64,000 bases of DNA from Alphaproteobacteria bacterium (lineage in GTDB: Bacteria > Myxococcota_A > UBA796 > GCA-2862545), in contig JACKER010000007.1 in NCBI GenBank assembly GCA_020632925.1, positions 116,910-180,909 on the forward strand, written 5' to 3'. The translations under genes and the position numbers were made by a program. This document shows, piece after piece, positions 1,817 through 44,111 of this stretch (within the stretch, counting starts at the first letter, position 1; the number at the start of each line of letters is the position of its first letter). The notes under the pieces are model-generated. The model was not told the origin of the DNA, made no database searches, and saw nothing but the letters and a program-made list of their open reading frames with translations.

Positions 1817-1967
1817 CTCGTTCTCCGGACCTCAACGTCCGCAAAACGTGTGCCACTCGTTGTCTATGACCTGGTATCTCGATCATCCGAGACCATTTTA
1901 AAGGAGTCCTGTATCCGTTGTGTGCGTTGACACATCGGGTCGCGTCCTCTCGCACAACACGGGCGGA

Positions 1968-18955: not shown

Positions 18956-19046
18956 CGCGGCATGGTCGGCCCAACTCGACCGGTTGTCAACGATGGGAGA
19001 CAACCAGCGGGCACGGGCCTTGCTTGGTGACCGGCAGGAGGTCGAT

Positions 19047-26870: not shown

Positions 26871-27383
26871 CTACTTGGGAGGGGGTAGTTTCTGGAGCTT
26901 GCGCTGGAGCGTGCGACGGTGCAGTCCGAGGCGGCGAGCGGCTTCGGAGATGTTGCCACCACAGGCCTGCAGCACCCCGAGGATGTGGTCGCGCTCCACC
27001 TGGTCGAGGTTCTCCGAGGGGAGCGGGAGCAGCGCGTCGCGCAGGGCCTCCACGATCTGCCGTCCGGACAGGGGCTTGGTCCGGAAGTCGACGGCGCCGG
27101 CGCGCATGGCCTCCACCGCCGTCGGGATCGTGCCGTGGCCGGAGAGCATCACGCAGCGGCAGGCAGGTGCCCGCTCGGCGAGGAGGCGGACCACGTCGAG
27201 CCCGTCACCGTCCTGCAGCTTCAGGTCCACGAGGGCGAGATCGGGGAGCTGGGCCGCGAGAGCCCCCGTCGCCTCTGCGAGTCCGGAGACGAGCACGGGC
27301 TTGAAGCCGGAGCGCCGCAAGGTGTTCCCGAGCGCGCTGCGGAAGTCCGCGTCGTCCTCGACGACCAGCACCGTGTGGCTCAC
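26871..27383 (-). CDS. response regulator, RegA/ActR/PrrA-like (REC + Fis-type HTH)
   Basis: GTG start overlapping the TGA of the kinase gene (GTGA). REC motifs (VLVVEDD, DLALVDLKLQDGDG). C-terminal HTH ISEAARRLGLHRRTLQRKLQK. Confidence 0.8.
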   Translation of the reverse strand: MSHTVLVVEDDADFRSALGNTLRRSGFKPVLVSGLAEATGALAAQLPDLALVDLKLQDGDGLDVVRLLAERAPACRCVMLSGHGTIPTAVEAMRAGAVDFRTKPLSGRQIVEALRDALLPLPSENLDQVERDHILGVLQACGGNISEAARRLGLHRRTLQRKLQKLPPPK

Positions 27384-28549
27384 GCGACCCTCCTCATGCG
27401 GAGGATGGCCGTAGCGCCCCTGGGCTCGGACGGCACGAGCTGCACGCTGCCACCGACGGACTCCGCGAAGCCCCGCGCGACGAAGAGACCCAACCCGGTG
27501 CTTCCCCAACCGCTGCGGAACGGCTCGCCCGCGCGCTCCGGTGGCTCGTCCCCGAGTCCGTGCCCGTCGTCCTGGATCCGCACCTCGAGCTCGTCGTCGC
27601 CCGCGGCGCCGGCGGTGACCCGGACGTGGGTGGCACCAGCGCGCCGGGCGTTGTCGAGCGTGACCCACAGGGCGCCGCGCCAGCCGTCCTCGCCGCCGCG
27701 GACCTCCATGCCGGGGCAGGCCTCCACGTCGACGGCCACCTCGGGGGCCGAGCGCCGCCACTCCTCCACCCAACCCACCAGGTCGACCGCGCAGTGCTCA
27801 CCGGTGCCGCCACGGCCCCGCAGGCGGTCGAGCAGCGCGCCACACCGCTCCACCTGGCGCAACATCGCGGCGGTCTCGGGCTCGTCCGCGCGCTCCTCGA
27901 GCAGCAGCTGCAGCGTGCCGAGCGGGGTGCCGAGCTCGTGCGCCACGCCGGCGGCCAGGGTGCCCAGGGCCGCCAGCCGCTCGGTGGTCGCGCGCTGGCG
28001 CTCTTCCACGGCCTCCTGCTCCCGTCGCTCGCGCAGCTCGGTCGACAGGCGGGTGACGACCCAGGTGATGGCGACGGCGGCGAGGACGAAGGTCGCGAGG
28101 TGCCCGAGGAGATGTGCGCCCGACAGCGGCTCGAGCCCACTGTCCGGCGCGAACACGACGACCGCCTGCAGCGCGACGGCTCCCGCGGTCGCCACCCACG
28201 CGCGTCGAGCGGGGAGCGCCACCGCCAGCAGCGCCACGTAGATGAGCCCGGTCGCCGCCAGCGGGTTGTGGGCGCCCCCGGACAGCAGGAGGACCACGGT
28301 GAGCGCGACCAGATCGACCACCGAGTGCCGCACCACGGCCGCCTCGCCCACCTCGCGCGCGCGCGTCCACAGCGTCTCGCCCACGTCGAGGACGACCAGG
28401 GCCGCCAGGAAGGCCACGAGCGCGGGCGGATGGAGGTGCAGCCCGGTCCCTGCCTCCGCGAGCAGCAACAGGACCACCTGGATCGCGATCCAGCTCCGAC
28501 GGGTGCGCACGAGCCACCGGAGCGCCAGGTCGTGGTTGGAGCCCGTCAT
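27380..28549 (-). CDS. sensor histidine kinase, RegB/PrrB-like (polytopic membrane + HisKA + HATPase)
   Basis: Start MTGSNHDLALRW. Its ATG overlaps the upstream TGA (ATGA). About 6 TM helices. H-box AAGVAHELGTPLGTL. N/G boxes (DDGHGLGDE, GLGLFVARG). Confidence 0.75.
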   Translation of the reverse strand: MTGSNHDLALRWLVRTRRSWIAIQVVLLLLAEAGTGLHLHPPALVAFLAALVVLDVGETLWTRAREVGEAAVVRHSVVDLVALTVVLLLSGGAHNPLAATGLIYVALLAVALPARRAWVATAGAVALQAVVVFAPDSGLEPLSGAHLLGHLATFVLAAVAITWVVTRLSTELRERREQEAVEERQRATTERLAALGTLAAGVAHELGTPLGTLQLLLEERADEPETAAMLRQVERCGALLDRLRGRGGTGEHCAVDLVGWVEEWRRSAPEVAVDVEACPGMEVRGGEDGWRGALWVTLDNARRAGATHVRVTAGAAGDDELEVRIQDDGHGLGDEPPERAGEPFRSGWGSTGLGLFVARGFAESVGGSVQLVPSEPRGATAILRMRRVA

Positions 28550-29289
28550 CCCAGGCCGAACCAGGCGCCGAGCAGCCCTCCCAGCGCGGACAGGGCCGCC
28601 ATCCCGACCCCGACGGCCACCATGCCGCCGACCAGCACGAACACGATCGTCCGTTCCCGGCGCTTCGCTGCCTCCTGCCTGGCCACGAGCTCGTCGCGCA
28701 TCGCGAACACGCCGTGCTTGAGCCGTCGGCGGGCCACGGCACCGGCCTCGACGTGGTCCGACAGGCGCACGGTGGCACCGCAGTGCGTGCAGGTCAGCTG
28801 GACGCGGTGGTCGTCGGGGACGTCGTTGTGCGCGCCGCAGCTCGGGCAGTCCAGCCCCTCGGCGACCAACCGCTTCAGTGCCTCGTTCTCCGCCACCTGC
28901 CGCGCCATGTCGAGCTGGAGCCGCTCGGCGTCGTCGATGTAGGCCGACACGGGCCAGGTCCGGTCGCAGGCCTCGCACCGCACCTGCTTCGCCGTGAGGT
29001 CCAGCGGGACGTCGACCGTCTGGCCGCACTTCAGACAGGGCATGGGGCGGACGGCGGTGCTCTCGTCCTCGAGCTTGGGCGCGGTGGCGATGCTGGCCGG
29101 GTCGAAGGGCTGTTGCACCGCCTCGTTCATCCAACCCACCAGCGCGTCGACCGAGCGGGAGGCCCCGTCGGCGAGCTCGGCCGTCCGCAGCTCCTGGTGG
29201 CAGGACACGCACGTGAAGGTCCCCGTGCGGAGATCTTCGGGCAACGGGTTGCTGGTGCCGCAGGAGGGGCAGGCGAGGGTCTGGCTCAT
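28546..29289 (-). CDS. zinc-ribbon protein with C-terminal membrane anchor (4 x CxxC pairs)
   Basis: MSQTLACPSCG...CVSCH, CLKCG...CEAC, CPSCG...CTHCG; C-terminal TM IVFVLVGGMVAVGVGMAALSALGGLLGAWF. ATGA overlap with the upstream regulator gene. Confidence 0.6.
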   Translation of the reverse strand: MSQTLACPSCGTSNPLPEDLRTGTFTCVSCHQELRTAELADGASRSVDALVGWMNEAVQQPFDPASIATAPKLEDESTAVRPMPCLKCGQTVDVPLDLTAKQVRCEACDRTWPVSAYIDDAERLQLDMARQVAENEALKRLVAEGLDCPSCGAHNDVPDDHRVQLTCTHCGATVRLSDHVEAGAVARRRLKHGVFAMRDELVARQEAAKRRERTIVFVLVGGMVAVGVGMAALSALGGLLGAWFGLG

Positions 29290-30752
29290 GGGGGGCTCCG
29301 GCGCAGCCCGAGGGAGGCGAGCTTGCGCTTCACGGTGTTCCGGTCGACCTCGAGCGCCCGCGCGGTGGCGCTGATGTTGCCGCCGGTCGCCGCCCACGCG
29401 TTCCGCACCGCCTGCTGCTCGGCGTCCGCCAGCACGTCGGCCAACGGGCGCACGCCATCGGCGGTCGGCGTCGACGCGGGACGTATCCCGCGGAGCTCGG
29501 GCGACAGGTCCTCGAGCGTGACCCGGCCCTCGGCGAACACGCACCAGCGCACGACCTCGGCCCGCAGCTCGCGTACGTTCCCGGGCCAGCGCCAGGCGGC
29601 GAGACGCGCCCAGGCGTCGGCGGCGACGGGCAGCTCGGGGCGGCCCTGCTCCTCGAGGAAGCGCGCGACGAGCGCGGGCAGGTCGTCGACGCGCTCGCGA
29701 AGCGGCGGCACCTGCAGCACCACGCCCGACAGGCGGTACCAGAGGTCCTCGCGGAAGCGCCCGCGGTCCACCTCCGCCTTCAGGTCCCGATGCGTCGCGC
29801 ACACGAGGCGCACGTCGACCTTCACGTCCTGTTCGCCGCCGAGGCGCCGCAGCTCGCCCTCCTGGAGCACGCGGAGGAGGCCGACCTGCACCCGCGCGGA
29901 GAGCTCGCCGACCTCGTCGAGGAAGAGCGTGCCCTTGTGCGCGAGCTCGAACAGGCCCCGTCGGCGGGCGCTGGCGCCGGTGAACGCCCCGGCCTCGTGG
30001 CCGAAGAGCTCACTCGCGAGCAGCCCGTCGTCGAAGGCGCCGCCGTTGCAGGCCACGAACGGCCCCTTCGCGCGGGGGCTCGCCTCGTGGATCGCGCGTG
30101 CGACGAGCTCCTTGCCGGTCCCGGTCTCGCCGTGCACCAGCACCGGCACGTCGGTCGGCGCCACCCGGAGCATCCGCGAGCGCAGCGTGCGCATCGCCGC
30201 CGACTCGCCGACCATCCCGTGGCGCACGACCCCGTCCGCCCGCAGGCGCACGACCTCCTCGCGCAGCGCGCGGATCTCCGGGAAGCCCTCGACCGGCATG
30301 CGCACGACGCGCACGGGGTGCGGGTGGGGCACGGGCACGAAGCGCGCGGGCACGACCTGCAGCATGCGCGCGGGCAACAAGCCGCTCTCGACCAGGATCA
30401 CCCACAGGGTCTGCGCCTGCGGCGTACCGGCGGAGAGCAGCACGTCGAGCCCCTCGGCGCCGCGCAGCTCCTCGACCAGCGGCCGCACCGCGGCGAAGAG
30501 CTGCTCGTGGTCCGACGGGTCGGTCAGCGGCACCGCGCGCAGCTCGACGGTGCAGCCGAGCGCCTCGGCCTCGCGCTTCAGCTCCCGACCGCCGCGGAGG
30601 CCCGCCTCGGGGACCAGCACCAGGACGCGATAGTAGCGCTCGTGGTCCAGCAGGCGCAGCACCGGGCCGCGGTCCTGCTCGGGGCGAGGGCCGTGGTGGG
30701 CGGGCGGCGGGCCCGCGCCGCGATCGGTCCAGGTGAGGAGCGTGCGGCTCAC
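29286..30752 (-). CDS. rtcR: RtcR-like sigma54-dependent regulator (N-terminal CARF-like domain + AAA+ + HTH)
   Basis: GTG start overlapping the TGA of the MVP gene (GTGA). The N-terminal 170 aa align with the E. coli RtcR CARF domain: DHEQLFAAVRPLVEELRG and LDVLLSAGTPQAQTLWVILVESGLLPARMLQV, compare DYLIHITTGTHVAQICWFLLAEARYLPARLIQ. This is followed by GETGTGKE, GAFTGA, and a C-terminal HTH. The upstream part of the 1265-aa ORF is junk. Confidence 0.75.
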   Translation of the reverse strand: MSRTLLTWTDRGAGPPPAHHGPRPEQDRGPVLRLLDHERYYRVLVLVPEAGLRGGRELKREAEALGCTVELRAVPLTDPSDHEQLFAAVRPLVEELRGAEGLDVLLSAGTPQAQTLWVILVESGLLPARMLQVVPARFVPVPHPHPVRVVRMPVEGFPEIRALREEVVRLRADGVVRHGMVGESAAMRTLRSRMLRVAPTDVPVLVHGETGTGKELVARAIHEASPRAKGPFVACNGGAFDDGLLASELFGHEAGAFTGASARRRGLFELAHKGTLFLDEVGELSARVQVGLLRVLQEGELRRLGGEQDVKVDVRLVCATHRDLKAEVDRGRFREDLWYRLSGVVLQVPPLRERVDDLPALVARFLEEQGRPELPVAADAWARLAAWRWPGNVRELRAEVVRWCVFAEGRVTLEDLSPELRGIRPASTPTADGVRPLADVLADAEQQAVRNAWAATGGNISATARALEVDRNTVKRKLASLGLRRSPP

Positions 30753-33253
30753 GCCTCGTCGTTGCCCTTGATGCGCTCGAGGACGCCGGCCAGCGGGGTG
30801 CCCGCGAACATCTTGTCCACGACCTCCACGAAGTTCCGGCCGCCGACGATCTGCTGCACGCTGAGCGCCTCGGCGACCTTCACCAGGGTCTCCTCGTGCG
30901 ACAGGGCGAGCAGCGCCTCGGAGAACCCGCCCTGGGCGGCCTCGAAGCGCGCGACCACCGCGTCCACCTCGGCCTTGAGCGCGGCCAGCTTCAGCTCCTG
31001 GTCCACGCGGGAGAGCGCCTGACGCTGCTCGTGGGTCGCCTTCTCGCGGACGAGCTGCCCCTCGTGCTCGACGGCGATCGCGGCCACCTTCGCGGTGTTG
31101 GCCTCCTGCCGCCGCTGGTGCTGCTGGACCTCGCCCGCGAGCGCCGCCAGCGCGACCGAGAGCTTGGCCTTCGCCTGCTCGATCTCGAGCTCTGCCAGGC
31201 GGGTCTGCGTCGCCGTACGGGCCTCGGCCATGGAACGCGCGATGCCCTCCTGCTGCTGCGTGACCTCGAGGCTGCGCTCGGCGCGGAGCAGCGTGATCGA
31301 GGACTCGACCGCCTCGTGCTGGGCCTGGGCGAGGAGCGTCGCGATGCGGTCGTCGTCGATGCCGACCTCCAGCACCTCCACGTCCGTCACCACCATCCCG
31401 TTCTCCGCGAAGCGCATGCCGGGGCGCGGCGAGCCCTCGGACGCCTTGCCGAGGATGCCGTCCCGCACGATGTCGACGGCCTGCTTGTAGAACTGCTCGA
31501 CCGGCAGCTTTTTGATCTGGCCCTTGAGCACGCTGCGGACGTGGTCGCAGAGCAGCTTCACGTAGTTCTCGACCTCGAACCACTTCTCGGACTCGCCCGT
31601 GAAGTTCACGCGGAGGCTGTACTCGAGCGTGATGCGCACGTGGTCGGCGGTCTCGACCTCGCAGGTGTCGCCGACGCGGTTGTTGAGCACCCGCAGGAAG
31701 GACGTGCGCAGCAGCCGGTCGGTGGACTTGGGGCGGCCGGTCGACAGCTCGAGGATCTCGAGCGTCTCGTCGTACTCGAGCAACAGGTTGCGCGGGCCGA
31801 CCTCGACGCGGCGGTTGCCGCTCTTGTCGACGACCATCACCGCGTACCCCACCCAGACGTTGACGTTGGGCACGCCCTCGAACTTGGTGTTGAACACGAT
31901 GGTGCGGGGCTGGGTGTACGAGCTGCCGCGCTCGACCACGTCGCCGACCATCGCGGGCACGTCGCGGCTCACGGCGGAGGCGTCCATGGCGACCGACTGC
32001 GACGCGGGCAGCGGCGCCTTGCCCCCGCGCTGCTGCTGCTGGACGCGGTTCGCGCGCTGGTAGTCGCCCTCGCTGACCACCCCGGCGCGCGTGGTGGGCG
32101 CGGCGTCCGCGAGGCGGCGGAGCTGGCGGTTGTACGTCAGCGCCTCGTCGTTGCCCGGGTACCAGGTCTCGCACTCGCGGTCGGACAGGATGCGGCGGAC
32201 GATGACCTCGTCGACGGGGTTGGGCAGCAGCATGAGCGGCCCGCGCGCCATGTGGATGGCGCCCGTCTTGCGGTTCATCACGTAGCGGGCCTCGCCGGCG
32301 GGCACGGCGGTCGCGAAGTGCTTGTCGCGCCCGTCGTAGCGGACCAGGCTGTGCTCCTCGCGCGGGAAGTAGATGGCGGCGTCCTTGCCCGTCAGGAAGA
32401 TCTCGTCGCCTTCCTTGTACGCCTTCCCACCGTCCTCGTAGGGCGCGATGATCTTGATGTGGAGCCCCTGGATCTCGTTGAGCTCCACGGCGCGGAACTT
32501 CCGGTGCTGGTCCTTCTGGATGAAGGTCTCGGTAGGCTCGGGGAACACGACCTGCGGGCCGCGCTCGTACCGCTTCTTGCCGTTCTGATCCACCAGGATG
32601 CAGTACTCGAGGCGCTCCAGGGTGAGGGCGTCGCGCACGTACAGCCCGTCGTCGTCGGCGACCACCCCGACACCGGTGGGCGGGATGTAGAAGCTCACGT
32701 CGGTGCCCTTGATGATGAGCAGCTTGCCGACGGTCAGGTCCTGCGGAGCCTGCGCGACGGGCGCCTCGGGAGCGCCGTCGCCGGCGGGCTTGATGACGGC
32801 CTTGCCCCAGTTCTTGCGCGCCTCGTCCTCGTTGTAGACCCGGACCAGCAGGTACTGGTTGGACCGGAGGTGGTGGCCCTGGACGAGCTTGACGATCTGC
32901 CCGGGCCACAGCGCGAAGCTGCACGGGCCGTTGATGTTGATCTTGCGACCGACCTCGAGATCGGGCGACGGGTAGACGCCGCCGAACGGCGGGTGGTCGT
33001 TCTTCGTCGAGGGGTTCTTGAGGGTGAGGTAGTAGCCCTCGGGCGCGATGGCGATCTGCTGCACGGCCTCCTCGAGCCCGCACGGCTCGAAGTGCTTGGT
33101 GCCGGCGTCGAAGCGGACGGGCCGCTCCTGGGCGGTCGGGTTGATCACCGTGGGCCCGGTGTACGTCTTGACGATGCCCTTGGTGACGTCCTGCATGTAG
33201 GCGTACTCGCTGGGCGCGAGCACGAGGTCCCGCTTCTGCGCGCGATCGTCCAT
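30749..33253 (-). CDS. major vault protein (MVP) homolog, full length (N-terminal repeats, shoulder, cap-helix coiled coil)
   Basis: 834 aa starting at MDDRAQKRDLVLAPSEYAYMQDVTKGIVKTYTGPTVINPTAQERPV, compare human MVP [39 protein letters not shown]. Shoulder region LELSTGRPKSTDRLLRTSFLRVLNNRVGDTCEVETADHVRITLEYSLRVNF, compare [50 protein letters not shown]. C-terminal Ala/Glu/Gln-rich coiled coil of about 150 aa. RBS GGGAGAACCACG. Confidence 0.8.
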   Translation of the reverse strand: MDDRAQKRDLVLAPSEYAYMQDVTKGIVKTYTGPTVINPTAQERPVRFDAGTKHFEPCGLEEAVQQIAIAPEGYYLTLKNPSTKNDHPPFGGVYPSPDLEVGRKININGPCSFALWPGQIVKLVQGHHLRSNQYLLVRVYNEDEARKNWGKAVIKPAGDGAPEAPVAQAPQDLTVGKLLIIKGTDVSFYIPPTGVGVVADDDGLYVRDALTLERLEYCILVDQNGKKRYERGPQVVFPEPTETFIQKDQHRKFRAVELNEIQGLHIKIIAPYEDGGKAYKEGDEIFLTGKDAAIYFPREEHSLVRYDGRDKHFATAVPAGEARYVMNRKTGAIHMARGPLMLLPNPVDEVIVRRILSDRECETWYPGNDEALTYNRQLRRLADAAPTTRAGVVSEGDYQRANRVQQQQRGGKAPLPASQSVAMDASAVSRDVPAMVGDVVERGSSYTQPRTIVFNTKFEGVPNVNVWVGYAVMVVDKSGNRRVEVGPRNLLLEYDETLEILELSTGRPKSTDRLLRTSFLRVLNNRVGDTCEVETADHVRITLEYSLRVNFTGESEKWFEVENYVKLLCDHVRSVLKGQIKKLPVEQFYKQAVDIVRDGILGKASEGSPRPGMRFAENGMVVTDVEVLEVGIDDDRIATLLAQAQHEAVESSITLLRAERSLEVTQQQEGIARSMAEARTATQTRLAELEIEQAKAKLSVALAALAGEVQQHQRRQEANTAKVAAIAVEHEGQLVREKATHEQRQALSRVDQELKLAALKAEVDAVVARFEAAQGGFSEALLALSHEETLVKVAEALSVQQIVGGRNFVEVVDKMFAGTPLAGVLERIKGNDEA

Positions 33254-33275
33254 CGTGGTTCTCCCGTGGTTTCGG

Positions 33276-34823
33276 CTAACGGGTGATCGCGACACCGGCG
33301 ACGAGCCCGAGGACGCCCCCCAGCGCGAGCCCGACGGAGAGGCCGACGGCGACCCAGCCCGCCGGGATGCCGCGTGGTTCCGTGGAGATCACGCCCTGCT
33401 CGCGGAGGAAGTCGCCGAGGGAGCGGGTCTCGTTGAAGGAGCGCTCGATCTTGAGCAGTCGCTCGGCGGTGCGCGGCCGCTGGCTGATCGTGAGCGCGAG
33501 CTGGGGGAGGAGCTGCGTGAAGTCCTCGCGCATCGACGGCCCGAACAGCCGGCGGCGGAGGATGGCGCCGGTGATCGTGCGGACCTCGGCGGCCCCGTCG
33601 AGGTCGGGGCAGTAGCGCAGGACGATGCCCTCGACGATGGTGAGGTTGCGCAGGACGACGAACAGGTCGGACTGGGCGCTCATGTGGTAGCTGGCGCCGA
33701 CGCGCATGCCGGCGATGAGCTGCTCGGTGATGCGGTGGTCGCCGATCCGCCCACCCTCGCCGCCGGCCGCGAGGACGGCGCGCAGATCCCGCTTGAGGGC
33801 GACCTGGTCCACCCCCGGCTCGGGGCGGAAGACCTGGACGAAGGCCTCGACGGCGTCGTCGTAGCGACGGGAGGCCTGGCAGAAGACGACCTCGAGCATC
33901 TTGTCGCGCAGCGCCCTCGGGAGCTGGGCGTGCAGGCCGAAGTCGACGAGCCCGATGCGCCCCGCGGGCTCGAGGATGAGGTTGCCGGGGTGGGTGTCGC
34001 CGTGGACGAAGCCGTGCTCGTAGCACATGGAGAGCTGAAGCCGGAGCATGGAGCGGCAGAAGGCCTCGGGGTCGTAGCCGAGGGCCTGGAGCGCCTGGGG
34101 TGTGCCGACGTCGGAGAGCTTGGTGCCCTCGAGCCAGGACATGACGAGCAGGTGCGGCGTACACAGGTGCGAGACGACGGTGGGGACGACGAACTCGGGC
34201 AGCGTGGTGAGGACCTCGTCGAACCGGTCGATGGCGCGGGCCTCGGCGAGGAAGTCGAGCTCACCACGGGCGCGGGCGGCGTACTCCTCGGCGACGCGGT
34301 GGACCATGGCGCGGTGGTAGGGCGGCACGAGGCGGTCGATGAAGCCGGAGAGCGTGAGGAGCGTGTCGAGGTCGGACAGCAGGGACTCCTCGAGCCCCGG
34401 GCGCTGGACCTTGACGGCGACCTCGAGGCCTCCGTCGCGCAGCGTGGCTCGGTAGACCTGGGCGATGGAGGCGGCGGCGACGGGGGACTCGCCGAAGGAC
34501 GCGAAGACCTCGTCGAGGGGGCGTCCGAGCTCGCGCTCGACGATCTGGCGCGCCGTGTCGGTGGGGAAGGGCTCGACGGAGGACTGGAGCTTCCCGAGCT
34601 CTTCGGTGAAGGTCTCGCCGAACAGATCGACCCGCGTGGAGAGCATCTGGCCGAACTTCACGAAGGTGGGGCCGAGGCGCTCGAGGGTCCTGCGGAGGCG
34701 GACGGCCGTGTCGGCGTCGCTGCGCGCGGGCTCGTCGGGCTTCTCGGTGGGTGACTCGGTGAGCCAGCCGAGGCCTTCCTCGAGCAGGACCTTCGTGATC
34801 GTGGCGACGCGTGCGAGCTTCAT
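33276..34823 (-). CDS. UbiB/ABC1 (ADCK) family atypical protein kinase with C-terminal TM segment
   Basis: The start MKLARVATI lies within the 1171-aa ORF; the upstream part is junk. Motifs TFVKFGQMLSTRVDLFGETF, AVKVQRPG, HGDTHPGNL, VDFG. C-terminal hydrophobic helix. It is 22 nt upstream of the MVP start. Confidence 0.75.
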   Translation of the reverse strand: MKLARVATITKVLLEEGLGWLTESPTEKPDEPARSDADTAVRLRRTLERLGPTFVKFGQMLSTRVDLFGETFTEELGKLQSSVEPFPTDTARQIVERELGRPLDEVFASFGESPVAAASIAQVYRATLRDGGLEVAVKVQRPGLEESLLSDLDTLLTLSGFIDRLVPPYHRAMVHRVAEEYAARARGELDFLAEARAIDRFDEVLTTLPEFVVPTVVSHLCTPHLLVMSWLEGTKLSDVGTPQALQALGYDPEAFCRSMLRLQLSMCYEHGFVHGDTHPGNLILEPAGRIGLVDFGLHAQLPRALRDKMLEVVFCQASRRYDDAVEAFVQVFRPEPGVDQVALKRDLRAVLAAGGEGGRIGDHRITEQLIAGMRVGASYHMSAQSDLFVVLRNLTIVEGIVLRYCPDLDGAAEVRTITGAILRRRLFGPSMREDFTQLLPQLALTISQRPRTAERLLKIERSFNETRSLGDFLREQGVISTEPRGIPAGWVAVGLSVGLALGGVLGLVAGVAITR

Positions 34824-34858
34824 GGGACGGCAGTATGCACCGGGGTGTAGAGTGGAAC

Positions 34859-35155
34859 ATGCGCCGAATGTCCACTCTCCTCCTCCTCCTGACCGCCTGC
34901 GGCGGCGAGACCACCCCGACCGAGACCATGTCGGACGCCTGCGCATGGGAGGAGGAGCGCGGGACGTGCCCGAGCTGCTCGGACGGGGAGGTGACCTGCA
35001 CGCTCGACGGGGTGGAGGTGACCTCGGGCACCTGCGGGAGCTGCCAGGTGCTGTGGAAGCTGGCGTCGGAGCTGTGCGCGGCGGGCAGCGACGTGACGAC
35101 CGAGGAGATCGAGGGCGCCGACTGCACGGACCCCACCTGGTCGACCTCCGACTGA
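34859..35155 (+). CDS. small Cys-rich lipoprotein
   Basis: MRRMSTLLLLLTACGG lipobox. 12 Cys in 98 aa. The start is only about 35 nt from the divergent UbiB-like start, so the start or the gene reality is uncertain. Confidence 0.4.
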   Translation: MRRMSTLLLLLTACGGETTPTETMSDACAWEEERGTCPSCSDGEVTCTLDGVEVTSGTCGSCQVLWKLASELCAAGSDVTTEEIEGADCTDPTWSTSD

Positions 35156-35211
35156 GGGTCGCGGTCCGGGGTTCGCCCGGCAGGATGGCACCGAGGGCGG
35201 CGTGCAGTCCC

Positions 35212-35480
35212 GGGGGGATGGCCGGGCAAGGTGGCCCCTGTGCAACACACGGCGTGCGCCGACGGGGGGATGGCCGGGCAAGGTGGCCCCTGTGCAACAC
35301 GCAGCGTGCACCGACGGGGGGATGGCCGGGCAAGGTGGCTCCTGTGCAACACACGGCGTGCAGTTCCGGGGGGATGGCCGGGCAAGGTGGCTCCTGTGCA
35401 ACACACGGCGTGCAGCCCTGGGGGGATGGCCGGGCAAGGTGGGGTGGATGCAACGCGCCGCGAGGCAAGGTGCCCCTCGT
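35212..35480. repeat. REP-like tandem array, block 1: 5 direct copies of a 52-bp unit (consensus about ATGGCCGGGCAAGGTGGCCCCTGTGCAACACACGGCGTGCACCGACGGGGGG)
   Basis: Exact 52-nt periodicity (unit A residues at 35218, 35270, 35322, 35374, 35426). 46 nt are conserved plus about 6 variable nt. The fifth copy is degenerate and carries an insertion. 52 is not a multiple of 3, so the region is non-coding. Confidence 0.8.
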
Positions 35481-35607
35481 GCAACACGCGGCGTCGGGAG
35501 CTGACGGACCAACGCCAGGTCTGGTGCGGTCTTGCTTCCCGGGTGCCTCAGATCCGGGCCTTCCGGTTGCATTGGGGTGCCCTTGCCTCCCCGACGGTTG
35601 CACCGAC

Positions 35608-35865
35608 GGGGGGATGGCCGGGCAAGGTGGCTCCTGTGCAACACGCGGCGTGCACCCCCGCGGGGATGGCCGGGCAAGGTGGCCCCAGTGCAACACACGG
35701 CGTGCACCGACGGGCGGATGGCCGGGCAAGGTGGCCCCTGTGCAACAGGCGGCGTGCACCCAGGGGGGGATGGCCGGGCAAGGTGGCCCCTGTGCAACAC
35801 ACGGCGTGCGCACGCACGGGGATGGCCGGGCATGGTGGCCCTTGTGCAACACGACATGGAGCAGG
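35608..35865. repeat. REP-like tandem array, block 2: 5 more copies of the same 52-bp unit
   Basis: Unit starts at 35614, 35666, 35718, 35770, 35822. Separated from block 1 by about 130 bp of unique sequence. Immediately upstream of the RAYT gene. Confidence 0.8.
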
Positions 35866-35999
35866 CGGGGAAGCCCGACCGGGCAGGACGTCCTGGAAGG
35901 CGCGGCTTCCCCGCCGTCCGTCACTTCGACGGACGTCGGTCGGTCGGTCACGGACCAACCTGGGTGATCCGCGGTCCGTGGGTTGCATCGTCGCCCACC

Positions 36000-36779
36000 A
36001 TGTTCCATCTCGTCGCACGCAGCGCCGACGGGCGCTTCCTGTTCCGCACCTGGGTCGAGGGCCTCGCGCTCTGGCGGCGTGTCCTCCGTGTCGCGCCGCG
36101 CACCGTCGCGCTCGTCGTCATGCCCGACCACCTCCACCTGCTCCACGCCTCCGACAACCGGCTCGAGCTCGCGCAGGCCCTCTCCGGGTACGCGCGGTGG
36201 CGCAACCGAGCGCGAGGCGAGCGCGGGCGCGTCTTCGAGCCACTGCCGTCGGCCATTCCCATCGGTACGGGCGACAAGCGGTCGCGCGCCATCCGCTACG
36301 TCCACCTCAACCCGTGCCGCGCTCGGCTCGTGTCCGATCCGCTCGCGTGGCCGCTCTCCACCCATCGGGACGCCCTCGGCCTGGCCCTCCCCGCAGCCAT
36401 CCGCGCTCACGCCGACCCCGAGGACTTCCATCGCTACGTCTCCTCCGATCCCAGCGTGAACGTCGATGGCACCGAGCTCCCGAAGGCCGGCGAAGCACCC
36501 GATCCGGAGCGGGTGCTCCAGGCGATCTCCGCCCTCACCCGAACCCCGGTCGCCCAGCTCCGGTGCAAGGGCCCCGCGCGCAATCTCCTCGTCGGCGCCA
36601 TGCGCGAGCTCTGTCCCGAGCAGCCGGTCTCGCAGGTCCATCGCACGACCGCCTGGCGTCGTCGCTCGATCGGGGTCCCGACGGATCGTGTGGTCTCGGT
36701 CCTCGCCGATCCCCGGTTCGCTCCGCTCCAGCACGGAGATCTCCGGGCGGGGTGGCGGGAGTACCGCCAGCATCGATGA
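36000..36779 (+). CDS. REP-associated tyrosine transposase (IS200/IS605 TnpA-like HUH enzyme, RAYT)
   Basis: MFHLVARSADGRFLF...VALVVMPDHLHLLHAS (HuH motif) and RSRAIRYVHLNPCRARLV (catalytic Tyr motif). No IS ends and no tnpB. Flanked by the 52-bp repeat array. Confidence 0.7.
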   Translation: MFHLVARSADGRFLFRTWVEGLALWRRVLRVAPRTVALVVMPDHLHLLHASDNRLELAQALSGYARWRNRARGERGRVFEPLPSAIPIGTGDKRSRAIRYVHLNPCRARLVSDPLAWPLSTHRDALGLALPAAIRAHADPEDFHRYVSSDPSVNVDGTELPKAGEAPDPERVLQAISALTRTPVAQLRCKGPARNLLVGAMRELCPEQPVSQVHRTTAWRRRSIGVPTDRVVSVLADPRFAPLQHGDLRAGWREYRQHR

Positions 36780-36780
36780 T

Positions 36781-36840
36781 CGATTCATCATGATGCATCA
36801 CGCATCATCGTCGGGATGATGTCTGGTGCATCAGGCTCGG
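36781..36840. promoter_or_regulatory. cluster of overlapping CATCA/TGATG inverted repeats (candidate enhancer/operator)
   Basis: tcgattCATCATGATGCATCAcgCATCATCgtcggGATGATGtcTGGTGCATCAgg: CATCATGATG and TGATGCATCA are perfect palindromes; CATCATC...GATGATG are 7-bp arms. Located 25-85 bp upstream of the sigma54 -24 element. GC is locally lower. Confidence 0.35.
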
Positions 36841-36863
36841 CCGAAACGCCAGGTTCCCCCATG

Positions 36864-36880
36864 TTGGCACGCCCGCTGCT
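36864..36880 (+). promoter_or_regulatory. sigma54 (-24/-12) promoter upstream of rtcB
   Basis: TTGGCACGCCCGCTGCT matches TGGCACG-N4-TTGCW, with GG at 36866-7, GC at 36878-9 and correct 12-nt spacing. Confidence 0.6.
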
Positions 36881-36892
36881 GTAGTGGCTGGC

Positions 36893-38080
36893 ATGGAACA
36901 CGAGACGAACATGGTGGTGCTGGACGGGGAGGGCGTCGTCATCGAGCCCGCGGCCGTCGATCAGCTCGCGCGGGTCGCCGCGCTGCCGGGGTGCGCCCGG
37001 GCGGTGGGGCTGCCGGACCTCCACCCGGGACCCGGGCTCCCGATCGGCGCTGCGGCGGCGATCGACGAGATCCGCCCCGAGCTGGTGGGCAGCGACGCGG
37101 GCTGCGGTGTGCGGCTGCTGGTCGCCGATCGCTTCAAGGTCACCGGCGACGCCCTCGAGCGCCGGGTCCGCGAGGCGACCGACGAGCCGCCGCTCCCCGA
37201 GGTCGACGCCGAGGAGGCGCTGGCCGCCGTGTGGGCCGAGGGCCCGGCGGCGCTCGCGAACGTCGCGGGGGTGCCCGACGAGCTGGCCGCACTGGCCTCG
37301 CTCGAGCCCCTCGACCCGTACCTGCACCGCGCGCTCCCCGAGGAGATGCTCTGGTCGGCCGGCTCGCTCGGCTCCATCGGCGGCGGCAACCACTTCGGCG
37401 AGCTGTCCGAGGTCGTCTCCGTCGTCGACGCGCCGGCCGCCGCGCGGATCGGGCTTCGGCGGGGGAGCGCGGTGGTGATGGTGCACAGCGGGTCGCGCGG
37501 CCTCGGGCGGATGCTCGCGGGTCGCCACGCCCACCCCCTCACGGACCCTGCGGCCTACCTCGAGGAGCTCGAGGGCTGCGTGCGCTTCGCCCGCGCCAAC
37601 CGGCTCGTCGTCGCGTGGAGGCTCGCTCGCGCCGCAGGGGTCGCCCGCGCCAGCAAGGTCGTGGGGACGCTCGACCTCGTCCACAACACGGTCGTCCGCT
37701 CGGGCGAGCGCTGGGTCCACCGCAAGGGGGCCGCGCCCGCCGAGGCCGACCAGCTCACGGTGGTGCTCGGCAGCCGCGGGGCGCACTCCTGGCTCATGTG
37801 CGGGGCGGGCTGCGAGGACGCGCTGTGCAGCGTGGCGCACGGGGCCGGACGGCGGATCACGCGCGGTGACGCCAAGGGCCACGTCCGCAGCCGCTACCGC
37901 CGGAGCGAGCTCACCCGCACCGCCACCGGCACGCGGGTGGTCTGCGACGACACCGATCTCCTCTACGAGGAGCACCCCGACTGCTACAAGTCCATCGAGG
38001 CCGTCGTCGACGTGCTCGAGGTCCGCGGCGTCGCCCGTCGGGTCGCCGCGTTGCGGCCGCTCGTGACGGTGAAGCGGTGA
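36893..38080 (+). CDS. rtcB: RtcB-family RNA ligase (PrfH-associated RtcB2 type)
   Basis: Motifs GCGVRLL, GGGNHFGEL, VHSGSRGLG, HNTVV, HGAGR. ORF-track start is GTG 36884; I prefer the ATG at 36893 or the ATG at 36911 because the sigma54 transcription start should fall near 36890. The stop overlaps the prfH start (GTGA). Confidence 0.8.
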   Translation: MEHETNMVVLDGEGVVIEPAAVDQLARVAALPGCARAVGLPDLHPGPGLPIGAAAAIDEIRPELVGSDAGCGVRLLVADRFKVTGDALERRVREATDEPPLPEVDAEEALAAVWAEGPAALANVAGVPDELAALASLEPLDPYLHRALPEEMLWSAGSLGSIGGGNHFGELSEVVSVVDAPAAARIGLRRGSAVVMVHSGSRGLGRMLAGRHAHPLTDPAAYLEELEGCVRFARANRLVVAWRLARAAGVARASKVVGTLDLVHNTVVRSGERWVHRKGAAPAEADQLTVVLGSRGAHSWLMCGAGCEDALCSVAHGAGRRITRGDAKGHVRSRYRRSELTRTATGTRVVCDDTDLLYEEHPDCYKSIEAVVDVLEVRGVARRVAALRPLVTVKR

Positions 38081-38673
38081 GCGTCGAGCTGCTGGTCACC
38101 AGCGGCGACGGCCCCCTCGAGGTGCGGTGGTTCGTGGCCGCGCTCGTGGAGGCGCTCGCCGAGCGCTTCGCCGTGCTCGACCGGACGGTCACGGGCCCGG
38201 AGGACGCGCCGTACTCGGTGGTGCTCCAGGTGGCCGACGAGCGAGTGGGCGACTGGCTCGGCACGCACGCGCTCTACCGCCCGAGCGAGCGCCGACGGGG
38301 ACGCAGCCGCTGGTACGTCGGTGTGAGCGCGCTGCCCCCCGTACCCTCGGCACCCGAGGTCGATCCGGCCGATGTGGAGGTCCGCACGATGCGGGGCGGC
38401 GGACCGGGCGGGCAGGCCGTGAACACGACCGCGTCGGCGGTGGTCGCCGTGCACCGCCCCAGCGGCGTGTCCGTGCGCATCCAGGACGAGCGCAGCCAGC
38501 ACCAGAACCGCCGTCGCGCGCTCGAGCGGCTGGCGGTCGCGCTGGCGCGGAGGGCGGAGGCGGCGTCGGGGGTGGTGGAGCGGAGCCGCTGGCTGCGGCG
38601 GCACCAGGTGGTGCGGGGCGATCCGGTTCGCCGCTGGCGGGACGACCGCGGGCGGCTGGTGGAGGAGCGATGA
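38077..38673 (+). CDS. prfH: peptide chain release factor H (PrfH, RF2-like GGQ protein)
   Basis: MRGGGPGGQAVNTTASAVVAVHRPSGVSVRIQDERSQHQNRRRALERL carries the GGQ motif in a truncated RF2-like fold. Genetic linkage to RtcB is the known rtcB2-prfH pairing. Confidence 0.75.
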   Translation: MSVELLVTSGDGPLEVRWFVAALVEALAERFAVLDRTVTGPEDAPYSVVLQVADERVGDWLGTHALYRPSERRRGRSRWYVGVSALPPVPSAPEVDPADVEVRTMRGGGPGGQAVNTTASAVVAVHRPSGVSVRIQDERSQHQNRRRALERLAVALARRAEAASGVVERSRWLRRHQVVRGDPVRRWRDDRGRLVEER

Positions 38674-39122
38674 GGGACGACATGCGCGACGTGCTGATCA
38701 CCCGCGGACGGCGCGGCGGGGACTGGCGCAAGCCGGGGCGGAAGCGGCCGCTCGAGGATCTCCCGCTGCGCGAGCCCATGATGCGCGGTGGAACGAAGTT
38801 CTTCGACGATCACCTCGGCCCGCTCAAGCGCTTCCTGGCCTCCCGCGTGGGGCGTCCGTGGGACGAGGTGTGGAGCGAGCTCACGCAGCACCTCGACCGC
38901 CGCGGCTTGCTCCAGGAGCACGTCTTCGTCCACCTCAAGCAGATGGTCGTGACGGAGGTGGTGGTCAAGGACGGCGTGCTCGGGTGCATGGGCTATCGAG
39001 GTTGGTACCCCCTGCACTCCGGCCGATGGCGGAACAGCTACTTCGTCGACCCGGCGACCTCGCGCCTCGAGCGCGCCCCCGACCGTCGCGTCGGCCGAGT
39101 GACGACTTCGAAAGAAGGATGA
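38670..39122 (+). CDS. hypothetical protein (third gene of the rtcB-prfH operon)
   Basis: The ATG overlaps the prfH TGA (ATGA). 150 aa, basic, normal composition (MRDDMRDVLITRGRRGGDWRKPGRKRPLEDL...). No recognisable domain. Confidence 0.45.
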   Translation: MRDDMRDVLITRGRRGGDWRKPGRKRPLEDLPLREPMMRGGTKFFDDHLGPLKRFLASRVGRPWDEVWSELTQHLDRRGLLQEHVFVHLKQMVVTEVVVKDGVLGCMGYRGWYPLHSGRWRNSYFVDPATSRLERAPDRRVGRVTTSKEG

Positions 39123-39181
39123 GGCGCGCTGGGCGATCGCGTACCGCCGATGGTACACACCTCGTCTACCCGGGAGGTCTC

Positions 39182-40492
39182 ATGCGTCGAGCAGTGGTGG
39201 TGCTGGTGCTGGCGGGGTGCGCGGACTCGGTCGAGGACACGGCGATGTTCGAGGTGGGGCCGATGCCTGACGCGATGGTCGAAGGTGCCGACGTGGTGAG
39301 CCTCCGCAGCGGGCTGACCCTCGAGGTCCCGGCGATGCTCGGTCGCGGCACCACCGAAGAGGTCGTGGTCAGCGGCCTGGCACCCAACGAGCAGGTCAAC
39401 GTGTTCTTCTCGACCGCCGGCGTGGGCGCGGGTCCGTGTCCCGCGGCGATGGGCGGGCATTGCTTCGACATCGTGGGGCCGGTGCAGCCGCTCGGCACGC
39501 CGACGGCCGGTGCGGACGGCATCGCGCGTCTGCAGGTCCCCATCGGTGCCAACGTCCCCATCGGCACGAGCGCGGGTGTCCAGGCGGTCGCGATCCGCGG
39601 GCTCGGAGGCGTCCAGACCGTCACCAGCAACCCGGTGGTGACCACGGTGACCCGCCAGCGAACCGACACGTTCAACCACTTCCCCGCCTCCCTCGACCTG
39701 TTGTTCGTCATCGACGACTCCTGCTCGATGGCGGAGGAGCAGGCCCAGCTCGTGACCAGCTTCTCGTCGTTGCTGCCGGTCCTGGCGGGCTTCTCGATGG
39801 ACTACCACGTGGGTGTCGTGACCACCGACATGACGGCGCGCGACGAGCGCGGGCGGCTGCGCGAGGACGCGGGTGGTGACCGCTGGATCGAGCCGTCCGA
39901 TGCCAACCAGGCCGTGAAGTTCGCCCAGATGGCGGACGTGGGCACCTCCGGCTCCACGGACGAGGAGGGCTTCGGCGCGATGATCGCGTCCATCAACGAC
40001 TTCGGGAACACGTACAACGCCGGGTTCCGCCGCGACGACGCCCAGTACTCGGTCGTCGTGGTCTCGGACGAGAACGAGCACAGCACGTTCATCTCGGTCG
40101 ATGATGCCGCCAACTTCCTCCACAACCAGGAGACGTACACCGGCGACGCGACGTTCACGTCGATCGTCACGCCGCTGGCGGGCTGCCCGACCGGTGACGA
40201 GCCGGGCGACAAGTACCTCGGCCTCACGAACAGCGTGGGCGGTGAGAAGGTCTCGATCTGCGCCTCCAACTACGCGCCCACCCTGCTGCAGCTGTCGCAG
40301 CGGTGGTGGACGAGCGACCCGTTCGAGCTGACGCGGGCACCGCTCGATCCGTCCACGATGGACGTGACCGTCAACGGCACGCCCGTCGACGCCGACGACT
40401 GGGTCTGGGACGCGGAGATGGGGACCGTGAGGTTCACCAACGGCTTCGCGCCGGCGGCGGGCAGCTCGGTTCGTGTCACCTACTTCTGGTAG
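39182..40492 (+). CDS. vWA domain lipoprotein
   Basis: MRRAVVVLVLAGCADS lipobox with RBS GGGAGGT. MIDAS motif DLLFVIDDSCSMAEEQAQL. 436 aa. Ends ...VRVTYFW. Confidence 0.7.
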   Translation: MRRAVVVLVLAGCADSVEDTAMFEVGPMPDAMVEGADVVSLRSGLTLEVPAMLGRGTTEEVVVSGLAPNEQVNVFFSTAGVGAGPCPAAMGGHCFDIVGPVQPLGTPTAGADGIARLQVPIGANVPIGTSAGVQAVAIRGLGGVQTVTSNPVVTTVTRQRTDTFNHFPASLDLLFVIDDSCSMAEEQAQLVTSFSSLLPVLAGFSMDYHVGVVTTDMTARDERGRLREDAGGDRWIEPSDANQAVKFAQMADVGTSGSTDEEGFGAMIASINDFGNTYNAGFRRDDAQYSVVVVSDENEHSTFISVDDAANFLHNQETYTGDATFTSIVTPLAGCPTGDEPGDKYLGLTNSVGGEKVSICASNYAPTLLQLSQRWWTSDPFELTRAPLDPSTMDVTVNGTPVDADDWVWDAEMGTVRFTNGFAPAAGSSVRVTYFW

Positions 40493-42448: not shown

Positions 42449-42509
42449 CGTATCCCGAGTGTTCGACGTGTCCGGGATCGGGACGCGACAGTGTCCCGTT
42501 GTGGGACAC
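42433..42509. promoter_or_regulatory. inverted-repeat cluster (candidate UAS for the AcoR-like activator)
   Basis: TCGGGATgtccgcatcgtATCCCGA (7-bp arms) and GTGTCCCgttgtGGGACAC (7-bp arms), plus GTCCGGGATCGGGAC, all 40-130 bp upstream of the sigma54 promoter. Confidence 0.35.
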
Positions 42510-42549
42510 CACCTCGCGATCCTCGGCGTATGTCCGTGTCCCGGTCCCC

Positions 42550-42565
42550 TGGTCCGAGGGTTGCT
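42550..42565 (+). promoter_or_regulatory. sigma54 (-24/-12) promoter for the aldehyde dehydrogenase gene
   Basis: TGGTCCGAGGGTTGCT: GG at 42551-2, GC at 42563-4, 12-nt spacing, TTGC -12 box. The RBS AGGAGGT and the ATG at 42591 follow. Confidence 0.55.
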
Positions 42566-42590
42566 TTGCTCCAGGCCCCAGGAGGTACCG

Positions 42591-44111
<1,521 letters not shown>

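Follow-up and report, generated by a model that had tools for sequence, protein, structure and literature searches.

RtcR-controlled RNA repair and the RtcB2-PrfH module

RNA repair under the control of RtcR was described for Escherichia coli and Salmonella, where expression of the rtcBA operon is sigma54-dependent (Genschik 1998; Hughes 2020, PMC7790460; Kotta-Loizou 2022, PMC9650030). Work with the enteric RtcR proteins revealed that the CARF domain inhibits the AAA+ domain, that tRNA halves with a 2',3'-cyclic phosphate bind to the CARF domain and trigger oligomerisation and that RtcA and RtcB contact the CARF domain as well (PMC7790460, PMC9650030); once CARF is deleted, both the Salmonella and the E. 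coli activator are constitutively active (PMC7790460). For the RtcB2-PrfH module it was found that PrfH frees the peptide from colicin E3-cleaved ribosomes and that RtcB2 re-ligates the 16S rRNA (PMC9304027, PMC9223846, PMC13166195). The present work deals with a locus on contig JACKER010000007.1, within a stretch of 64 kb (the window, i.e., the whole stretch of DNA that was analysed), in which a gene for an RtcR-type activator follows a gene for a major vault protein (MVP) homolog, and in which an rtcB2-type gene, prfH, an uncharacterised gene of 150 codons (orf150) and a gene for a vWA lipoprotein form an operon on the opposite strand. With a probability of about 80% the window is read as carrying a rearranged copy of a module conserved in Polyangia, in which the RtcR-type activator would drive rtcB2-prfH-orf150 via palindromes and a sigma54-type promoter. 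The RtcR family, CARF activators, sigma54 control of rtc genes, RtcB2-PrfH and bacterial MVP homologs are already known (PMC4012209, PMC7790460, PMC9304027, bioRxiv 10.1101/872010). The feature that is specific to the window is a genome rearrangement, and a connection of the repair genes to the vault is unsupported.

Comparison with enteric RtcR revealed the same architecture, as the activator consists of a divergent CARF domain, an NtrC-type AAA+ domain with the GAFTGA motif and a Fis-type helix-turn-helix (HTH), at 33% identity. As in the enteric rtcBA locus, the regulator gene of the relatives is read away from an operon that begins with rtcB and has a promoter of the TGGCAC-N5-TTGC type, whereas in the window it is found 6 kb off, inside another operon. 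The target differs from the enteric one, being rtcB2-prfH-orf150 and not rtcB1-rtcA, with no RtcA present, and the enhancer of three palindromes identified here is not discernible in the intergenic region of E. coli. With the RtcB2-PrfH module (Tian 2022, PMC9304027; Maviza 2022, PMC9223846; Baranov 2006, PMC1586002) the locus has in common the order of rtcB and prfH, the overlap of stop and start codon and the GGQ motif, and the ~27% identity of the window RtcB to E. coli RtcB1 matches the 28% reported for EcRtcB1 and EcRtcB2. However, this module was described as a two-gene operon without a named regulator, whereas Polyangia add a CARF activator, a sigma54-type promoter and orf150, to which the lineage of the window further adds the vWA lipoprotein. 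Accessory genes likewise gather around the prfH-rtcB core in the main text of Burroughs and Aravind 2019, where TPR, Pol-beta nucleotidyltransferase, Zn-ribbon plus charged-helix and charged-helical proteins are described (PMC6514570); an RtcR-type activator or a protein like orf150 is not mentioned there. RtcR-like CARF-AAA+-HTH proteins which are unlinked to Rtc genes accompany restriction-modification systems (Makarova 2014, PMC4012209); the RtcR family is hence broader than the regulators of rtcBA, whereas the family considered here is tied to rtcB2-prfH in ~80% of its loci. In the literature searched, a natural regulator or an inducing signal of RtcB2-PrfH is not named, and neither control of rtcB2-prfH by an RtcR-type activator nor its enhancer nor orf150 was found to be described, prior mention in the survey of Burroughs and Aravind 2016 or in supplementary tables being possible.

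The conserved locus and its split version

The rtcR comparison set consists of the best 80 of 153 relatives, obtained by a scan with a CARF-domain profile over one genome per GTDB species, against which the window proteins were searched by tblastn. These loci (numbered L001 onwards) come almost entirely from Myxococcota and mostly from Polyangia, covering Sorangium, Polyangium, Minicystis, Labilithrix, Nannocystaceae, Enhygromyxa, Plesiocystis, Haliangium and Kofleriaceae. RtcB was found in 64/80 and PrfH in 62/80 of them. Their layout is nearly always the same, with rtcB and prfH reading in one direction, the activator gene reading in the other and 105-630 bp between the two start codons. In the window the activator gene is neither adjacent to nor divergent from rtcB: its start lies 6.0 kb from palindrome 1 of the enhancer and it is embedded in a chain that begins with ubiB and MVP. 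As the divergent layout is that of most relatives, the window most probably represents the derived, split version of an ancestral state that was E. coli-like. A first reading of the window, made from its letters without database searches (the sequence-only reading), had proposed exactly such a split Rtc locus, which the counts for RtcB and PrfH bear out, and had furthermore stated that the regulator was captured into the vault chain, which agrees with the GTGA overlap that leaves no intergenic space between MVP and activator gene.

Palindrome 1 of the enhancer is preceded by the activator start codon in the relatives and by the 3' end of a RAYT-like gene in the window. Because this 3' end replaces the activator start, the breakpoint of the rearrangement appears to be located no more than a few bases from the original start of rtcR. 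Other derived states were identified within the comparison set, i.e., L033 (4146-10010), in which an insertion of 5.9 kb separates rtcB from the activator gene, the Enhygromyxa salina loci L014 and L023, in which the activator genes are orphaned with neither enhancer nor rtcB nearby, and L021 from a Sorangium strain, in which promoter and enhancer are kept next to what is only a PrfH remnant. The insertion of L033 holds putative HNH-like and RNA-ligase-like open reading frames (ORFs). A separate observation concerns a conserved ORF of ~300 aa and unknown type (motifs NYFHDTWHIL and PTPFE-DP) that belongs to the operon across from the activator gene in L041 (8973-9863, minus strand), L067 (9071-9967, minus strand) and L076 (~8050-9525, minus strand); a sigma54-like element accompanies it in L041 and L076 and not in L067, and the PrfH frame overlaps the ORF in L076.

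Promoter and enhancer of rtcB

For promoter and enhancer statistics 61 orthologous intergenic regions were used, the window included. A -24/-12 element agreeing with TGGCACG-N4-TTGCW in at least 9 of 12 positions was identified in rtcB orientation in 58/61 regions and in reverse orientation in 2/61. In the window element the GG and GC doublets are 10 nt apart, as expected for a sigma54-type promoter. Within the window the promoter motif alone is not above chance (6 matches at <=2 mismatches as compared to 7.5 expected), and the significance of the element therefore comes from its conservation in the orthologous regions and not from a consensus search of a single window. The sigma54 promoter that the sequence-only reading had placed upstream of rtcB thus stands as a conserved element, its start being corrected from 36864 to 36865.

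In the relatives, the intergenic DNA comprises three 17-bp palindromes of the form TGRTKC-N5-GMAYCA, followed by TGGCACG-N4-yyGCw. The intergenic DNA, 13.9 kb in total, contains 169 such palindromes (12.2 per kb) as compared to 0.38 per kb over the whole loci, and exactly three of them are present in 45/61 regions. Their spacing is 21+24 nt, with 17/16+26 nt found in L001/L003 and 17+26 nt in the clade of the window, and their distances to the -24 element fall into classes which are ~10 nt apart, i.e., in helical-turn steps (91/71/47, 101/80/56 and 112/91/67). Palindrome 1 of the relatives adjoins the activator start codon or overlaps with it. The enhancer region of the window aligns colinearly with those of L001, L007 and L037, whereby palindromes 2 and 3 reside 74 and 48 nt from the -24 element (73/74 and 47/48 in L001/L003) and the remnant of palindrome 1, which includes the stop codon of the RAYT-like gene (36777-36779), lies 91 nt away from it, where L001/L003 predict this palindrome (90-91). 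A search for further palindromes of the CATCA/TGATG type had been proposed on the basis of the sequence-only reading and, run on the 64 kb, yielded at 0-1 mismatch solely the two sites upstream of rtcB (36791-36807 and 36817-36833).

The palindromes are connected to the activator by covariation. In the loci with a TGGTTCA half-site the Asp of the HTH recognition helix xDRNTLKRK is replaced by Glu (8/9) or Gly (1/9), and in the remaining loci Asp is present in all ~46 readable helices. As half-site and recognition helix covary, the palindromes would be tied to the RtcR-type activator, and the exchange of D for E in DRNTLKRK, paired with that of TGGTGCA for TGGTTCA, appears to be a natural specificity switch. 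The identification of the rtcB promoter as a putative sigma54-type element that is conserved together with a conserved enhancer is supported by these comparisons.

The activator

The activator is composed of a CARF domain (residues 1-178, nt 30219-30752), a sigma54 AAA+ domain (residues 180-346, nt 29715-30215), in which GETGTGKE (208), GAFTGA (255) and LFLDE are present, and a Fis-type HTH (residues 441-479, nt 29316-29432). Pfam identified Sigma54_activat (PF00158, E=6e-67), AAA_lid_14 and HTH_8 (PF02954, E=2e-6) in the protein, and with the N-terminal 178 aa in isolation the RtcR family (PF06956) was matched at 25.1 bits, the gathering score being 23.1, with 16/20 homologs matching it as well. 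Both the CARF signature SAGTPQAQTLWVILVESGLLPARMLQ and Walker A are kept. Aligning the CARF-domain profile with the N-terminus of E. coli K-12 RtcR by hhalign gave a probability of 96.3% (E=2e-9), and the BLASTP alignment with E. coli RtcR, to which the above identity refers, is colinear over residues 58-424 (E=5e-49). When the PDB was searched at the sequence level, the CARF domain and its profile returned noise only, and a fold search was needed: the AlphaFold2 (AF2) model has a pLDDT of 89.4, and its top Foldseek matches in the PDB are nearly all CARF proteins (Csm6 6tug with E=3e-7, Cam1, Can2, Csa3, Csx1 and ring nucleases). The likeness of the activator N-terminus to the CARF domain of E. 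coli RtcR, noted from the sequence and proposed to be checked by alignment to RtcR CARF profiles, is therefore confirmed by Pfam, hhalign, BLASTP and AF2/Foldseek, the profile alignment being positive.

Among the NCBIfam matches listed, the RtcR model alone reaches ~100 residues upstream of the AAA+ domain. The score against this equivalog (NF038308, model positions 71-505 aligned) is 317.6 bits and thus below the cut-off of 650, on account of which the activator is taken to belong to a divergent RtcR subfamily and probably is no ortholog of enteric RtcR. Its best relatives are found in Myxococcota metagenome-assembled genomes (MAGs) at ~70-73% identity, and its recognition helix reads DRNTVKRK where the usual form is DRNTLKRK.

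The rtcB2-prfH-orf150-vWA operon

In the window RtcB the motifs DAGCG, GGGNHF, HSGSRG, HNT and HGAGR are intact (Pfam RtcB, E=1e-67). Best scores were obtained with the PrfH-associated models, namely 253.4 for TIGR03073 release_rtcB (cut-off 271.8) and 299 for NF007153 (cut-off 407), and membership of RtcB in the PrfH-associated clade is hence supported by synteny, not by thresholds. PrfH comprises 198 aa, reaches 119.8 bits with TIGR03072 (cut-off 166.65) and has the PrfH entries 9mor (E=2e-23) and 7sa4 as its best PDB matches; its start codon overlaps the rtcB stop codon (GTGA). The sequence-only reading had assigned the two genes to the PrfH-associated type of rtcB and to prfH, respectively, which is supported by the NCBIfam models and by the PDB matches. 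It had furthermore listed an uncharacterised gene of 150 codons and a vWA lipoprotein gene behind prfH, both of which were found, each joined to the preceding gene by a 4-nt overlap.

The product of orf150 is conserved, uncharacterised and basic; its core is weakly winged-helix-like and its N-terminal tail is basic. No family was assigned to it by Pfam or NCBIfam, and its homologs are all annotated as hypothetical. Homologs follow prfH in ~21 of the 80 rtcR loci, precede prfH in seven loci without rtcB nearby (L047, L052, L072, L074, L077, L078 and L080) and, in a distant form, stand directly behind a gene for a 403-aa RtcB in Maricaulis-labelled alphaproteobacterial contigs without PrfH (L162-L165, 6001-6483). 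This distribution suggests orf150 to be an uncharacterised partner of PrfH and RtcB. The vWA lipoprotein matches the NCBIfam MIDAS adhesin model (E=3e-15) and Pfam VWA (E=0.008). The order prfH-orf150-vWA is kept in the close relative L161 (Logan SRR14932521, 1-1429; 86-88% aa identity) and is absent from the 80 rtcR loci. As it is kept in L161, the vWA gene is probably a stable, lineage-specific addition to the operon.

Proposed mechanism

Based on the work with E. coli and Salmonella RtcR and with RtcB2-PrfH, from which we infer the ligand, the sigma54 dependence in vivo and the biochemical roles, the following mechanism is suggested. Ribotoxins cutting rRNA or tRNA would yield RNA fragments that end in a 2',3'-cyclic phosphate and are bound by the CARF domain, whereby the inhibition of the AAA+ domain would be lifted. 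The activator, binding to the three 17-bp palindromes 47-113 bp upstream of the -24/-12 promoter, would oligomerise on palindromes 2 and 3, perhaps also on palindrome 1, remodel sigma54-RNA polymerase and open the promoter at 36865-36880, a process by which rtcB2-prfH-orf150 is switched on. Subsequently, PrfH would free the peptide from the damaged ribosome and RtcB2 would re-ligate the 16S rRNA, with orf150 serving as a conserved accessory protein which probably binds nucleic acids or the ribosome. The rearrangement near the rtcR start codon is assumed to have moved the regulator gene by 6.0 kb to a position behind ubiB-MVP, where it is very probably co-transcribed and probably also translationally coupled, and to have left the RAYT-like gene with its array of 52-bp repeats abutting the enhancer. 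As a consequence of co-transcription, rtcR supply would follow the promoter of the ubiB operon and not the enhancer that once abutted the rtcR start. The displaced activator would work in trans, and as palindrome 1 abuts the rtcR start codon in the ancestral layout, autoregulation has probably been lost.

The MVP gene and its relatives

The MVP homolog matches the Pfam families MVP_shoulder (PF11978, E=6e-26) and Vault_3 (PF17795, E=6e-8) and, with residues 470-759, the PDB structures of rat and human MVP (E=6e-17). Its gene starts 22 nt behind the ubiB stop codon with a GGGAG Shine-Dalgarno sequence, and its stop codon TGA shares bases with the GTG at which the activator gene begins. For comparison, a set of 80 MVP loci from metagenomes was collected (L081-L160), with flanks of up to 10 kb. 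Within 120 nt upstream of MVP the element [CT]GG-N9-TGC[AT] is present 17 times in forward and 2 times in reverse orientation, with ~3 expected (62 non-redundant loci); 13 of the 17 elements end 12-18 nt before the ATG and usually are accompanied by 1-3 TGCTCC-N3-5-GGAGCA palindromes 47-100 nt further upstream. The MVP genes bearing this promoter are 58-84% identical to that of the window (e.g., L107 at ~9870-10000, L116, L159 and L126), and bacterial MVP looks like an activator-dependent, inducible gene. Near the MVP gene of the window no TGCTCC-N3-5-GGAGCA palindrome was found, nor such a promoter element upstream of its ATG (33253-33300). Since the promoter and palindromes of related MVP genes are absent there, the window MVP appears to have lost its usual control region, and the stretch from 27 to 36 kb would be a mosaic.

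Two side observations were made with the MVP loci. In L148 a gene for an FHA-domain sigma54 activator (7762-9930, plus strand) ends 70 nt before an MVP gene of the same strand, a single case in 80 that is compatible with chance in view of the abundance of such activators. Weak protein-kinase-like matches to the catalytic-loop region of UbiB are located 0.3-1.3 kb downstream of MVP in L096 (5094-5312), L122 (13765-13983), L107 (13087-13389) and L135 (2116-2325) and may represent a recurrent MVP-kinase neighbourhood.

Alternative explanations

A variety of other explanations may be considered for the arrangement in the window. The most far-reaching one, put forward in the sequence-only reading, is that the RtcR-like activator was recruited to the vault operon and that MVP and ribosome repair form one RNA-damage response, in which MVP expression and RtcR activity are coupled. 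The GTGA overlap, which makes co-transcription of MVP and rtcR almost certain, speaks for this idea, as do the sigma54-type promoters with upstream palindromes at related MVP genes and the fact that RtcR regulons can include eukaryote-like ribonucleoprotein (RNP) components (PMC7790460). It would resemble the Ro60/Y-RNA genes of the RtcR-controlled Salmonella rsr-yrlBA-rtcBA locus, as in both cases a eukaryote-like RNP component is physically linked to RtcR-controlled repair genes; however, the Salmonella RNP genes lie downstream of the RtcR-dependent promoter, whereas the window MVP lies upstream of rtcR and on the strand opposite that promoter, and its linkage is not conserved. An MVP gene near rtcR was found solely in L062 of the 80 rtcR loci, a Haliangiales MAG, where it lies 2.5 kb from prfH but is convergent to it and separated from it by other genes, and rtcR, rtcB or prfH neighbours were found in 0/80 MVP loci; conversely, MVP was counted as absent from 78/80 rtcR loci. 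Within the 64 kb no RtcR-type palindrome (<=1 mismatch) is located near ubiB or MVP, the palindrome of the MVP type being unlike it and absent here. On the minus strand from 30.7 to 36 kb there is no -24/-12 match with <=2 mismatches, and the best candidate for ubiB/MVP (34956-34971) has 3 mismatches, a level reached by 29 sites of the window. Finally, an Rfam search of 26-42 kb identified no Y, vault or other RNA at E<=1. Judged by these findings a joint regulon is very unlikely, and the adjacency of rtcR and MVP is best read as a by-product of rearrangement. A related idea, according to which the fusion itself is adaptive and a vault-like shell is co-expressed with an RNA-damage sensor for the handling of damaged ribosomes or RNA fragments, is considered very doubtful; if true, it would parallel, among prokaryotes, the Ro60/Y-RNA genes of the Salmonella RtcR regulon and offer the first functional handle on bacterial MVP.

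The reading of the window as a rearranged but working rtcB2-prfH-orf150 module has points against it, too. Activator, RtcB and PrfH all score under the NCBIfam equivalog cut-offs and would thus be divergent family members, and as the locus is without RtcA the activator may respond to a ligand other than that of enteric RtcR. With 3 mismatches palindrome 1 is degraded, by which two strong sites would remain. The -12 GC lies only ~13 nt before ATG 36893, as compared to 24 nt with a GAGG Shine-Dalgarno sequence in L001, the closest relative, a distance that would leave the rtcB mRNA almost without a leader if translation did not begin at ATG 36911. Furthermore, a second rtcR or more palindrome-bearing promoters are possible outside the visible 64 kb. 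The degraded palindrome and the shortened leader, next to the DRNTVKRK helix, the orphaned activators of Enhygromyxa salina, the decayed target in L021 and the presence of two other activator genes in the window, could also be explained by a decoupled regulator, i.e., an activator that is retargeted or decaying, with rtcB2-prfH silent or driven by another sigma54 activator. Yet palindromes 2 and 3, with 0 and 1 mismatch, have stayed intact and hold the ancestral distances exactly, the -24/-12 element has 1 mismatch to the consensus, no ORF is disrupted and the catalytic motifs and the 4-nt coupling are preserved, and the activator keeps Walker A, GAFTGA and the CARF signature; the separation by 6 kb is no obstacle, as activators of the RtcR class act in trans. 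Decoupling is hence held to be very improbable. The split might also have arisen during assembly, by a chimeric join via the repeats in a genome that in truth carries the canonical divergent locus, and a ten-copy tandem array, of a kind that can mis-assemble, indeed lies between the two halves. However, neither junction (30749-30752 and 36774-36779) falls into repeated sequence, the array being 0.9 kb from the nearest one, each junction is a clean gene boundary, in frame and with overlapping start and stop codons, and GC content as well as codon usage are uniform across the region, all of which renders an artefact exceedingly unlikely.

Gene map of the window and further features

The window has ~72% G+C, and as the raw ORF lists are mostly noise, genes were separated by third-position GC and frame plots. 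On the minus strand the genes for a ubiB/ABC1 kinase, MVP, the activator, a multi-zinc-ribbon protein, a RegB-like histidine kinase and a RegA-like response regulator follow each other, and from MVP on every start codon overlaps the preceding stop codon (GTGA or ATGA). On the plus strand a small lipoprotein ORF, the 52-bp repeats and the RAYT-like gene precede rtcB, prfH, orf150 and the vWA lipoprotein gene, the last four sharing 4-nt overlaps (GTGA/ATGA) between consecutive genes. All features that had been named by the sequence-only reading were recovered at the positions given there, with the promoter start off by 1 nt.

Table 1. Coordinates of genes and sequence elements in the window.
Feature	Position	Strand	Evidence or remark
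RegA-like response regulator	26871-27383	-	chain downstream of activator
RegB-like histidine kinase	27380-28549	-	chain downstream of activator
Multi-zinc-ribbon membrane protein	28546-29289	-	chain downstream of activator
RtcR-like enhancer-binding protein, 488 aa	29286-30752	-	Pfam, NCBIfam, AF2, hhalign, BLASTP
MVP homolog, 834 aa	30749-33253	-	Pfam MVP_shoulder, Vault_3
ABC1/UbiB-family atypical kinase, first gene of chain	33276-34823	-	Pfam ABC1 E=3e-64
Small lipoprotein ORF, lipobox LLLTAC	34859-35155	+	sequence reading, third-position GC
Ten direct 52-bp repeats	35216-35839		10 matches vs 0.02 expected
RAYT-like HUH/Y1 transposase gene (weak call)	36000-36779	+	NCBIfam below cut-off
Palindrome 1, degraded remnant CGATGATCGATTCATCA	36774-36790		3 mismatches
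Palindrome 2 TGATGCATCACGCATCA	36791-36807		perfect match to TGRTKC-N5-GMAYCA
Palindrome 3 TGATGTCTGGTGCATCA	36817-36833		1 mismatch
Sigma54-type -24/-12 element TGGCACGcccgCTGCT	36865-36880	+	1 mismatch to consensus
rtcB2-type RNA ligase	36893-38080	+	alternative starts GTG 36884, ATG 36911
prfH, release factor H homolog	38077-38673	+	GGQ at residue 111
orf150	38670-39122	+	ATGA overlap with prfH
vWA/MIDAS-like lipoprotein	39119-40492	+	ATGA-coupled to orf150

The repeats form two blocks of five which are separated by 188 nt with an inverted-looking centre; no further copy was found in the window and no match in Rfam. They had been taken for a REP array, a description that does not hold, as they are direct 52-bp tandem units located on one side of the RAYT-like gene and not palindromic REPs. 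The RAYT-like protein matches NCBIfam REP_Tyr_transpos with E=1e-9 and 38 bits, below the 80-bit cut-off, and E. coli TnpA-REP (PDB 4er8) with E=0.84, and has no Pfam match. Its HUH (HLHLL) and Y-x-x-x-NP motifs align with the latter at that E-value, and the RAYT assignment of the sequence-only reading is a weak call, the NCBIfam score being under the cut-off.

The small lipoprotein ORF, for which no family match was obtained, points away from ubiB, and 35 bp separate its start codon from that of the kinase gene. The multi-zinc-ribbon protein (247 aa), encoded directly behind rtcR, comprises four CxxC zinc ribbons together with a basic helix, ends in a membrane segment at its C-terminus and recalls the Zn-ribbon plus charged-helix accessory genes near prfH-rtcB in the main text of PMC6514570. 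The window genes other than those of the conserved module show no synteny with the 80 rtcR loci: no homolog of the zinc-ribbon protein, histidine kinase, response regulator, UbiB, lipoprotein or RAYT-like protein was identified in any of them, and the 80 MVP loci yielded solely weak kinase-domain, RAYT and HK-like matches to those proteins (HK-like in L144, E=5e-5). As homologs are absent or weak in both locus sets, the zinc-ribbon, histidine kinase, UbiB, lipoprotein and RAYT-like proteins probably stand outside both conserved modules. Two more genes for sigma54-type activators reside in the window (17414-20056 and 40553-42595, both minus strand), found by the similarity of their AAA+ domains to all 80 loci; abundant sigma54 activators are typical of myxobacterial genomes. 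A sigma54-like sequence, TGGCACACGTTTTGCG (1840-1855, minus strand), directly upstream of a 514-aa ORF (287-1831, minus strand), is possibly another sigma54 promoter.

Significance

To our knowledge, RtcB2-PrfH is the only system by which ribosomes cut in the decoding centre are both rescued and re-ligated. The Polyangia loci would supply it with a dedicated activator carrying a CARF sensor, with a defined enhancer (three TGRTKC-N5-GMAYCA palindromes) plus sigma54 promoter and with a third conserved gene, orf150, that accompanies RtcB outside of the myxobacteria too. They further offer what appears to be a natural specificity switch, in which Asp or Glu in the recognition helix is paired with G or T in the half-site. 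The window adds to this that regulator and target are separable, the regulator having apparently been re-wired to the promoter of another operon, and it cautions against reading function from adjacency to a vault gene. With activator, enhancer and promoter at hand, the signal which turns on ribosome repair becomes directly testable, for instance in cultured Sorangium.

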